Shown: positions 5,548-45,439 of the stretch, piece by piece | Position numbering within the stretch: the first letter of the stretch is position 1 | Layout: each line of letters begins with the position of its first letter | Origin: Candidatus Nanoarchaeia archaeon | GTDB lineage: Archaea > Nanobdellota > Nanobdellia > SCGC-AAA011-G17 > GW2011-AR18 | Reading direction: 5' to 3' | Length of the DNA: 64,000 bases | Assembly: GCA_035289605.1 (NCBI GenBank) | Contig: DATDWR010000020.1 | Span: forward strand, 10,921 to 74,920 | The notes under the pieces: model-generated | Told to the model about the DNA's origin: nothing | Databases searched by the model: none | The model's input: the letters and a program-made list of their open reading frames with translations, nothing else | Program-made: the position numbers and the translations under genes

Positions 5548-5787
5548 GCGGGGATGCCGGAGAACTCACAGAGGTTCGTGCTCCTACAAACTTCGTGTGT
5601 ACGGAGTGGCCAAACGGGCTAGAAGTAAAATTTACTGGCTTAGCTTAGGTTATTTCATAGGTGTTCTGAGCTTAACAGCTATGATATAAAAGACACCTAG
5701 TGGCTTAGTGCCTACGCAGGTTCGAAAGGAATCCTTTTAAAAAAAGCATTCATGGAAAAAGGATTAACGAAAGTCCTGTTCCCCGCA
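5548..5787 (+). tRNA. tRNA gene interrupted by multiple insertions (240 nt; isotype unresolved)
   Basis: The 5' GCGGGGA pairs perfectly with TCCCCGC at 5780-5786, followed by A73. The D-arm pieces GCCGGAG...TGGCCAAACGG are split by ~43 nt. The T arm GCAGG-TTCGAA / T-CCTGT is split by a ~47-nt hairpin-forming insert. Further extra sequence lies in the anticodon/variable region. Confidence 0.7.
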
Positions 5788-37972: not shown

Positions 37973-38112
37973 AGCCACCGGAGAGACTTGAACTCCCAAC
38001 CTGCTGATCACTTTAAGATCATTTACCAATCAAGGCATCAGATGATCAGCATACAAGTTACAGCTAATCAATAAATTGATTACCAGCTGCTCTGCCATTG
38101 AGCTACGGTGGC
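37973..38112 (-). tRNA. tRNA gene (140 nt) with ~68 nt of extra sequence in the anticodon region; possibly Thr
   Basis: Reverse complement folds as GCCACCG UA GCUC AAUGGCA GAGC A GCUGG ...(75 nt)... UCAGC AGGUU GGGAG UUCAAGU CUCUC CGGUGGC U. U73 and the GCC.CCG acceptor resemble archaeal tRNA-Thr. Candidate loops are UUGGUAA or CUUGUAU. Confidence 0.65.
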
Positions 38113-43510: not shown

Positions 43511-43598
43511 TAGCCCCGCCAGGATTTGAACCTGGGTTGCAAGGTCCAGAGCCTTATGCTATAAATAATCGCATGCTTGGCCGCTACATTACAGGGCT
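43511..43598 (-). tRNA. tRNA-Gln(CUG) with 15-nt insertion between D arm and anticodon stem
   Basis: Reverse complement folds as AGCCCUG UA AUGU AGCGGCCAA GCAU G [cgattatttatagca] UAAGG CUCUGGA CCUUG CAAC CCAGG UUCAAAU CCUGG CGGGGCU A. The A1-U72 pair is typical of archaeal Gln. Confidence 0.8.
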
Positions 43599-44266
43599 AT
43601 AAATTCATTTAGTCTGTCTAAATGTTTTTTATTTGAAAATCCTATTTCACTTAAATATTTATTTATTTCATCTTGTCTTGATAATACAAAGTAGGCACCA
43701 CATATTATTTTTGATGGATGAAAACCTAATTTTATGAATGCTTCTCTAGTATCATCTAATAATTTTTTATTGAAATTCTTAAAACCTATTCTAATTAAAT
43801 TTGGATCTTTCTTAGACATCCTGAAAACTGAACCATCTGTGTCTATTAAACCCCTAATACATCTTTTTAAAAAAAAATTATTTTCTTTAATCCAAAGTGG
43901 TATTGTTACTTTATTTTTAATTTTATTTCCTGCTGGAAACCCTATACTTTCAAAAAATTCAACTAAATTTTTGCTATATACCACCACAAATCTTTCGTTC
44001 ATTTTAGGAGTCAAGATTATATTTACTTTTAAGTGAAATATCTTCTCGCAAAGTATTTTAAGAAAGTTTTCATGATAATCTTTATCTTTTATTAAATCAC
44101 CAGCAATTTTAATATGATAAGTTCTTATCTTTTTACCTTTTTTATAAGAGTTAATATTTCCATCACCTAATAAAACCCCATATATTTCTGCTAGATACTT
44201 ATTTAATTGAGGTACTTGTATCTGAATAGTATTACCATAAACACTATTTTGAAATATTTTATCCAT
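43589..44266 (-). CDS. LAGLIDADG homing endonuclease (two-motif, free-standing)
   Basis: LAEIYGVLLGDGNI and IRGLIDTDGSV motifs. Its last codons and stop overlap the first 10 nt of tRNA-Gln(CUG). Confidence 0.8.
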   Translation of the reverse strand: MDKIFQNSVYGNTIQIQVPQLNKYLAEIYGVLLGDGNINSYKKGKKIRTYHIKIAGDLIKDKDYHENFLKILCEKIFHLKVNIILTPKMNERFVVVYSKNLVEFFESIGFPAGNKIKNKVTIPLWIKENNFFLKRCIRGLIDTDGSVFRMSKKDPNLIRIGFKNFNKKLLDDTREAFIKLGFHPSKIICGAYFVLSRQDEINKYLSEIGFSNKKHLDRLNEFIAL

Positions 44267-45252: not shown

Positions 45253-45263
45253 TTTAGTTAAAA

Positions 45264-45397
45264 TAGCCCCGCCAGGATTTGAATTCCCAAACTAATTCCT
45301 GGGTCAATGGCTCCAAAGGCCACCTAGGATATATTTTTATTATCCTTGGCCGTTGTCTCTAACCTATAAAAAAAAGATTAGTCTAGACGACGGGGCT
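45264..45397 (-). tRNA. tRNA-Gln(UUG) with three insertions (D loop, 26/27 junction, T-stem/loop junction)
   Basis: Reverse complement folds as AGCCCCG UC GUCU AG [30 nt] CGGCCAA GGAU [~17 nt] GUGGC CUUUGGA GCCAU UGAC CCAGG [aattagtttgggaa] UUCAAAU CCUGG CGGGGCU A. Confidence 0.75.
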
Positions 45398-45439
45398 CTG
45401 GTAAAAATAGAGAGAACTCCCTTTTAAAAAGTTATCCTA

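Follow-up and report, generated by a model that had tools for sequence, protein, structure and literature searches.

The stretch of DNA analysed here (64,000 nt; called the window) is C20:10921-74920 of an 839 kb MAG in 22 contigs, which is 86% complete and has a GC content of 32%. The host is an ultrasmall, groundwater-type DPANN archaeon of the Woesearchaeota. On the minus strand of the window, positions 45397..45264 hold a 134-nt body of four exons and three introns that gives a tRNA-Gln(UUG) (called Gln-UUG here). The features of this gene, together with the neighbouring gene for tRNA-Gln(CUG) (Gln-CUG), are listed below.

45421..45431, minus strand: TATA-like box (CTTTTTAAAAG), approximately 24-34 nt upstream of the mature 5′ end
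45383..45397, minus strand: exon 1, tRNA nt 1-15; acceptor 5′ strand AGCCCCG, U8 C9, D-stem 5′ strand GUCU, A14 G15
45353..45382, minus strand: intron 1, 30 nt, at position 15/16 (D loop); strict hBHBh′ motif, MFE fold, homologous introns in L030 and L050
45341..45352, minus strand: exon 2, tRNA nt 16-26; remaining D loop CGGCCAA, D-stem 3′ strand GGAU, A26
45324..45340, minus strand: intron 2, 17 nt (AUAAAAAUAUAUCCUAG), at position 26/27; BHB search, MFE fold, shuffle control
45298..45323, minus strand: exon 3, tRNA nt 27-53; anticodon arm GUGGC-CUUUGGA-GCCAU, variable loop UGAC (4 nt), T-stem 5′ strand CCAGG
45316..45314, minus strand: anticodon UUG, within exon 3
45284..45297, minus strand: intron 3, 14 nt (AAUUAGUUUGGGAA), at position 53/54; BHB search, relatives, MFE fold, shuffle control
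45264..45283, minus strand: exon 4, tRNA nt 54-73; T loop UUCAAAU, T-stem 3′ strand CCUGG, acceptor 3′ strand CGGGGCU, A73
45260..45263, minus strand: T run immediately 3′ of the discriminator base, likely an archaeal terminator signal
43512..43598, minus strand: Gln-CUG; a single BHB intron of 15 nt interrupts the anticodon stem (29/30 by BHB register)

The spliced Gln-UUG is 72 nt long, and its sequence is AGCCCCGUCGUCUAGCGGCCAAGGAUAGUGGCCUUUGGAGCCAUUGACCCAGGUUCAAAUCCUGGCGGGGCU, then A73. Cloverleaf scoring found 21 of 21 stem pairs and 10 of 10 conserved nucleotides, and ARAGORN calls the spliced molecule tRNA-Gln(ttg). An earlier note, made from the letters alone, had assembled a canonical tRNA from these exon pieces, and they were found exactly as written. 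It had put the inserts at 30, about 17 and 14 nt; the measured gaps are 30, 18 and 14 nt, the 18 being the 17-nt intron plus A26. The architecture was also said to be nearly identical to that of Gln-CUG, and the comparison agrees: both tRNAs are 72 nt long, with identical D loops, T arms and 3′ acceptor strands. An A1-U72 first pair and an A73 discriminator are features of archaeal tRNA-Gln. Both are present in Gln-UUG together with the UUG anticodon, and they also occur in more than 50 Gln genes of other archaea that have the same 3′ end. The CCA is not encoded at the 3′ end. The unspliced locus escapes standard tools. ARAGORN, with and without its intron option, returned no tRNA from the locus or precursor, and the Rfam tRNA model gave no match to the raw locus at the gathering threshold or at E≤10. 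The genome contains two Gln tRNA genes only, CUG and UUG, and no second gene with a UUG anticodon was found in the 86% that is present. Of the two glutamine codons, CAA is the commoner in long ORFs (3519 vs 2685 for CAG).

The introns were located by a splice search that takes 7-bp acceptor stems as seeds, enumerates BHB introns and grades each spliced molecule for its fit to a cloverleaf, the full score being 31, from 21 stem pairs and 10 conserved nucleotides. A candidate intron had to bring exon nt -6..-3 and intron nt n-5..n-2 together in a 4-bp central helix, with 3-nt bulges; splice sites were set between bulge nt 2 and 3. Under strict criteria, a single solution reached 31/31, with introns at precursor nt 16-45, 58-74 and 101-114. 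The three non-canonical introns claimed in the earlier note are thus all of BHB type, at 15/16, 26/27 and 53/54, and the motif prediction that it proposed for each junction gave a 4-bp central helix and 3-nt bulges in the correct register in all three. Intron 1 has the central helix GUCU/AGAC, the bulges AG|A and AA|C, an inner helix of 6-7 bp and an outer helix of 3 bp. Intron 2 has the central helix AGGA/UCCU, the outer helix GCCA/UGGC (4-5 bp) and a weak inner helix of 2 bp, both A-U. The central helix of intron 3 is CCCA/UGGG, and its outer helix is 3-4 bp; because the inner helix is just 1 bp, the motif is effectively a bulge-helix-loop. Judged by these motifs, introns 2 and 3 are putative relaxed (bulge-helix-loop-like) substrates.

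The MFE of the precursor is -48.4 kcal/mol (z = -4.0), and none of 200 shuffles folded equally well. The fold holds the three central helices and both 3-nt bulges of intron 1. At intron 2, the 3′ bulge AG|G forms, and the 5′ site falls where a helix meets a loop. In introns 2 and 3, the helices run on slightly and take in the 5′ bulges, which counts against the predicted motifs. In this fold, the strands of the D, anticodon and T stems all pair with an intron or a neighbouring exon; therefore, the cloverleaf would be unable to form before splicing. When the intron letters were shuffled, a 4-bp helix appeared at the true boundaries in 1.5%, 0.6% and 0.6% of trials for introns 1, 2 and 3, respectively, and all three helices appeared at once in 0 of 20,000 trials. 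The complete search pipeline solved none of 300 shuffled precursors.

We scanned one genome per species with the 3′ 20-mer of Gln-UUG. The scan gave 61 loci in Thorarchaeota, Woesearchaeota, Pacearchaeota and other DPANN; the Thorarchaeota Gln genes with this 20-mer are mostly intron-free. Four other Woesearchaeota genomes (L007, L030, L041 and L050) carry an identical mature Gln-UUG (72/72). All four belong to the family of the window's genome, and one, L030, belongs to its genus. The five genomes span at least three genera, and their inserts vary in number, place and sequence, as follows.

Window genome: 15/16 (30 nt), 26/27 (17 nt), 53/54 (14 nt)
L030 (‘Candidatus Woesearchaeota archaeon ERP119705_co9_178’, same genus): 15/16 (21 nt), 37/38 (16 nt)
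L050: 15/16 (28 nt), 37/38 (14 nt), 53/54 (20 nt)
L041: 25/26 (22 nt), 37/38 (14 nt), 53/54 (19 nt)
L007: 10/11 (32 nt), 25/26 (22 nt)

Introns at the same site are recognisably homologous, with attag...(a/g)gacaa at 15/16 and aa...tttgggaa at 53/54, and their inner helices stay paired despite the differing sequences. The 14-nt intron at 53/54 is a shortened form of the 19-20-nt introns that L041 and L050 carry at this site. The comparison points to exons that are under selection and introns that come and go. Five genomes with one mature tRNA and six intron sites offer a natural experiment on how introns arise, vanish and slide. A third copy of the final approximately 25 nt of tRNA-Gln (GGTTCAAATCCTGGCGGGGCTA) was also seen in L030 / L067 (same-genus genome G003, contig positions 4183-4202) and in L031 / L071. 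It lies between the Gln-UUG and Gln-CUG genes, with no 5′ half within 400 nt, and may be what is left of an integration site or one half of a split tRNA.

The relatives also bear on where the splice sites lie. A run with relaxed BHB criteria produced a second solution with the same score of 31, in which intron 1 is 28 nt, the D loop is 11 nt and the tRNA is 74 nt. A real gene with these boundaries, or with any others that depart from the strict solution, is improbable. L041 and L007, which have no intron at 15/16, show a contiguous 9-nt D loop (AGCGGCCAA) within the 72-nt mature sequence, the same as in the spliced Gln-UUG, and the 28-nt version was therefore rejected. In addition, the 30-nt version makes the perfect GUCU/AGAC helix with both 3-nt bulges that is seen in the MFE fold.

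Every tRNA of the window had been described as interrupted, and this holds for every tRNA locus found there (Val-GAC, Gln-CUG, Gln-UUG, 37974-38112 and 5548-5787). Val-GAC has one intron, at 53/54. The remaining two loci are listed below.

37974..38112, minus strand: 140-nt tRNA whose acceptor, D and T arms are clean, with U73 (Thr-like) and apparently at least two introns
5548..5787, plus strand: 240-nt Leu-type gene, interrupted in the D loop, the anticodon region and the T loop

In the 140-nt tRNA, allowing as many as three BHB introns, strict or relaxed, gave no canonical loop from the 75 nt between the anticodon-stem halves. The Leu-type gene has at least three insertions, of which a 43-nt and a 47-nt insert are evident, and the splice search returned no full-score solution for it. 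Both Val-GAC and Gln-UUG have 53/54 introns that end in GGGAA. A common origin of the two was considered and rejected, since this ending is forced by the motif: four bases complement the T-stem 5′ strand, and a two-base AA bulge follows. A comparison by eye of the eight 53/54 introns found in the genome showed no other obvious similarity. Side by side with Gln-CUG, a 225-aa LAGLIDADG-type ORF (LLGDGNI ... DTDGSV; 43589..44266, minus strand) ends at or inside the 5′ end of the tRNA gene.

A genome-wide census, as the earlier note had advised, showed that 21 of the 22 cleanly solved tRNA genes are interrupted. They contain 39 introns (1.8 per solved gene) with lengths of 12-82 nt: one gene has none, nine have one, six have two and six have three. 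The last group consists of Gln-UUG, Phe, Lys-CUU, Thr-GGU, Asn and Ile-GAU. The canonical site 37/38 holds 11 introns, 53/54 holds eight, 29/30 and 59/60 hold three each, and the others are scattered; 28 of the 39 are non-canonical. A crude sorting by motif gave 18 hBHBh′, 13 HBh′ and 8 hBH(L). The census is partial, with 22 clean loci and at least seven interrupted loci that gave no clean solution, against approximately 45 expected; its seeds require an uninterrupted 7-bp acceptor stem outside long ORFs. Three loci (C11:9681, C11:11207 and C17:6043) had ambiguous solutions. The value of 1.8 is probably a lower bound, because genes without introns are found most readily and those left unsolved look more broken. 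Across the genome, the one genuine intron-free tRNA that plain ARAGORN found is Ala-GGC; the Rfam tRNA model found 14 tRNAs, almost all of them over-long. Most of 26 tRNA loci carry a TTTAWA promoter box after an A-rich stretch, which peaks at -34..-30 from the mature 5′ end, and the CTTTTTAAAAG box of Gln-UUG is in register with the boxes of most other loci. Gln-CUG belongs to the few loci where no TATA-like box is obvious near -30. The TTTAWA box could act as a seed for finding the tRNA genes still missing.

These observations also weigh on the idea that the locus is a decaying pseudogene, whose inserts are never removed, with CAA codons being read by another tRNA. Standard tRNA finders do miss the locus, and 14% of the genome is missing. 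Against this, the 72 exon nucleotides are identical in all five genomes while the inserts differ, the splice motif is in exact register in every insert, and the promoter box is placed as in the other tRNA genes. Nearly every tRNA gene of the genome is built likewise, and the one UUG-anticodon gene found is this one. Perfect exon conservation together with intron turnover argues for a functional spliced gene, to the exclusion of a pseudogene and an assembly artefact, and we consider decay very improbable. A real gene with its own promoter and three BHB introns, spliced by EndA and RtcB, is the reading in which we have high confidence.

The genome encodes a single EndA. One PF01974 match was found (C10:16605-16865, E = 2.8e-30), in a gene at L001 1474..2196 on the minus strand. 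The ORF is at most 240 aa and probably 219 aa, which makes one two-domain alpha unit. A phmmer search of all six-frame ORFs of the genome found no paralogue below E = 0.1, and neither PF01974 nor phmmer revealed a beta subunit or an epsilon2 enzyme. The earlier note had advised a look at the subunit type of the endonuclease, with epsilon2 or a heterotetramer as examples; a single alpha-type subunit was found instead. Exactly one PF01974 match is present in 29 of 31 relatives, and these include 100%-complete and single-contig genomes. Of the proteins with solved structures, the best matches are the catalytic alpha subunit of N. equitans (3IEY_A, 2e-34) and the alpha4 EndA of M. jannaschii (1A79, 2e-31). 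The alignment to 1A79 covers 146 residues with a single 1-residue gap and places the triad at Y of FRVY, H of DHAKW and K of HSTRK. By this alignment, the enzyme is of alpha4 type, with N- and C-terminal domains and a catalytic Tyr-His-Lys. A divergent neighbour of the EndA gene on C10 (L001 2174..3064, plus strand) encodes an RNase Z-like metallo-beta-lactamase, so that two tRNA-processing enzymes stand side by side.

The spacing between the catalytic Tyr and His is the same as in M. jannaschii, while N. equitans alpha (3IEY_A) has six and ARMAN-2 (4FZ2) seven more residues there. The L3 loop, a Lys-containing insertion between the catalytic Tyr and His (PMC5829648; described in PMC3239211), is absent from EndA and from the nine relatives inspected, all nine of which have VYDRGIKPGEDHAKW or a close variant. 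EndA also lacks the Crenarchaea-specific loop, being six residues shorter in the alignment to the alpha subunit of A. pernix. EndA has a K/E-rich N-terminal tail of approximately 48 aa; the tail ranges from 0 to approximately 48 aa in relatives, and its motif ELPKTNE is common to the window's genome and G006. If open-frame length is taken as a rough upper-bound proxy for tail length, and kinship is ignored, frames of 177-189 aa go with 23-35 Rfam tRNAs and frames of at least 200 aa with 10-31.

The RtcB ligase gene lies outside the window (C11:38881-40250, minus strand, E = 7e-151). EndA and RtcB are each single-copy and conserved in 29 of 31 relatives. In the window's genome, rtcB is itself interrupted twice. 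A 32-nt insert shifts the frame within the conserved motif MPDGHWG|YGFPIGGV and shows no fit to the strict BHB register. A 30-nt insert is in frame, contains two TAA stops and fits a BHB motif (H=4, h=2, h′=3); its removal restores GGIGFD|INCGMR. The supply of ligase would therefore hang on the same splicing pathway, which counts against the scheme. In six relatives (G005, G006, G015, G018, G029 and G032), rtcB occurs in frames of approximately 950-1010 aa, with the Pfam segments 1-50 and 48-426 approximately 1.5 kb apart. The gap looks like an intein-sized insertion in the region of the 32-nt insert.

Removal of the inserts by self-splicing or by an unknown nuclease, with no part for EndA and RtcB, deserves the least credence: although alpha4-type enzymes that lack a specificity loop are reported to be poor on relaxed substrates and EndA here has none of the loops thought necessary for such motifs (PMC5829648), which counts against EndA removing introns 2 and 3, inserts of 14-30 nt are far below the size of a group I or II ribozyme, all three introns show the BHB register that defines EndA substrates, and EndA and RtcB are the sole dedicated splicing enzymes detected.

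Splicing by EndA and RtcB would then proceed as follows. A TATA-box promoter of its own would drive the sole tRNA-Gln(UUG) gene of the genome, giving a 134-nt body with introns in the D loop (15/16), between the D stem and the anticodon stem (26/27) and between the T stem and the T loop (53/54). Of the last six nucleotides of each intron, four would pair with exon nt -6 to -3 before the 5′ splice site, and the following two would be bulged. This four-base complementarity would give a 4-bp helix flanked by 3-nt bulges, that is, the BHB motif. The single alpha-type EndA, presumed to be a homotetramer, would cut each motif in both bulges, between nt 2 and 3. RtcB would join the exons, and CCA would be added later. 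We infer the transcription and splicing of Gln-UUG, the oligomeric state of EndA and the order of intron removal from sequence.

Genes of this type are known. Multi-intron BHB tRNA genes have been described from the Thermoproteales Pyrobaculum, Thermofilum and Caldivirga (Sugahara et al., Fujishima et al.; tRNAscan-SE 2.0, PMC8450103). Archaeal tRNA genes have at most three introns each, and approximately 70% of the introns are canonical; the average is 0.21 per gene overall and 0.84 in Thermoproteales, and the published record is held by Pyrobaculum calidifontis, with 71 introns in 46 genes (1.54 per gene; PMC8450103). The genes here resemble those of Thermoproteales in having up to three short BHB introns, most of them non-canonical (D loop, 26/27 region, 29/30, 53/54, 59/60), in their intron turnover among close relatives and in the failure of standard finders. 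The host is different, being a DPANN/Woesearchaeota archaeon with a genome of approximately 0.84 Mb and 32% GC and not a hyperthermophilic crenarchaeon. A single alpha subunit without the Crenarchaea-specific loop takes the place of the (alpha-beta)2 heterotetramer that carries it. The density of 1.8 per solved gene also exceeds 1.54 in P. calidifontis and 0.84 on average (PMC8450103).

The statement in the earlier note that such genes are documented mainly for Thermoproteales stands in part: the type was described there, but tRNA gene disruption in DPANN had already been flagged in 2018 (PMC5829648). Kaneta et al. studied four DPANN genomes, including one Woesearchaeota and one Pacearchaeota MAG, and found disruption markedly raised in DPANN lineages with an alpha4 EndA (PMC5829648, Figure 7). 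Incomplete predicted tRNA sets hinted at undetected disrupted genes, and disruption was tied to the Lys-rich ‘L3’ insertion in the C-terminal domain of EndA (PMC5829648). The present case shares with theirs the superphylum, the disrupted tRNA genes and the alpha4-type EndA. It differs in that EndA lacks L3, and that paper gives no gene-level account of three-intron genes in the lineage. Our literature search found no gene-level description of such tRNA genes for Woesearchaeota. ARMAN-2 (Micrarchaeota; Fujishima et al. 2011, PMC3239211) is also a DPANN archaeon with non-canonical, relaxed BHB introns; its epsilon2 EndA is a three-unit fusion of approximately 395 aa with two specific loops, unlike the alpha unit of approximately 219-240 aa found here. 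Asgard archaea resemble the present case in that most tRNA genes are interrupted, by introns that escape standard software and were gained repeatedly (bioRxiv 10.64898/2026.10.13.758758). They belong to a different superphylum, and the preprint makes no mention of DPANN or Woesearchaeota. What appears to be new is the intron density of this family, along with a plain, loop-less EndA as the only endonuclease.

The earlier note had read the interrupted genes as a sign of a lineage-wide expansion of introns. The orthologous Gln-UUG genes of the four other Woesearchaeota genomes, with two or three introns each, are in line with this, as are low Rfam tRNA counts. An archaeon needs at least 40 tRNAs. 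Counts were taken in genomes that are at least 90% complete, to which the window's own 86%-complete genome was added. Each of two genomes of the same genus has 11, the window's own genome has 13, the family ranges from 10 to 29, and other families of the order range from 16 to 36. Because these counts fall below the number needed, they indicate, indirectly, that tRNA disruption is common to the order as a whole and most marked in the window's family. For a genome of the order, standard annotation thus reports 10-36 tRNAs, and for one of the genus 11-13. With so few tRNAs detected, tRNA-based estimates of completeness and codon capacity for such MAGs are therefore wrong.

The enzyme raises the wider question. 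The intron set to be served probably has at least 1.8 introns per gene, approximately 70% of them non-canonical and about half relaxed (HBh′ or bulge-helix-loop). We suggest tentatively, with somewhat more doubt than belief, that a plain alpha4-type EndA lacking L1/CSL, L2/ASL and L3 may service this densest known set of tRNA introns and also the mRNA introns of rtcB. If this is true, broad EndA specificity arose in a fourth, undescribed way, for which the K/E-rich N-terminal tail is one candidate. The combination would challenge the rule that relaxed and non-canonical introns need an EndA specificity loop. Extreme fragmentation of tRNA genes reaches beyond the Thermoproteales to an ultrasmall DPANN archaeon with a minimal one-gene enzyme.
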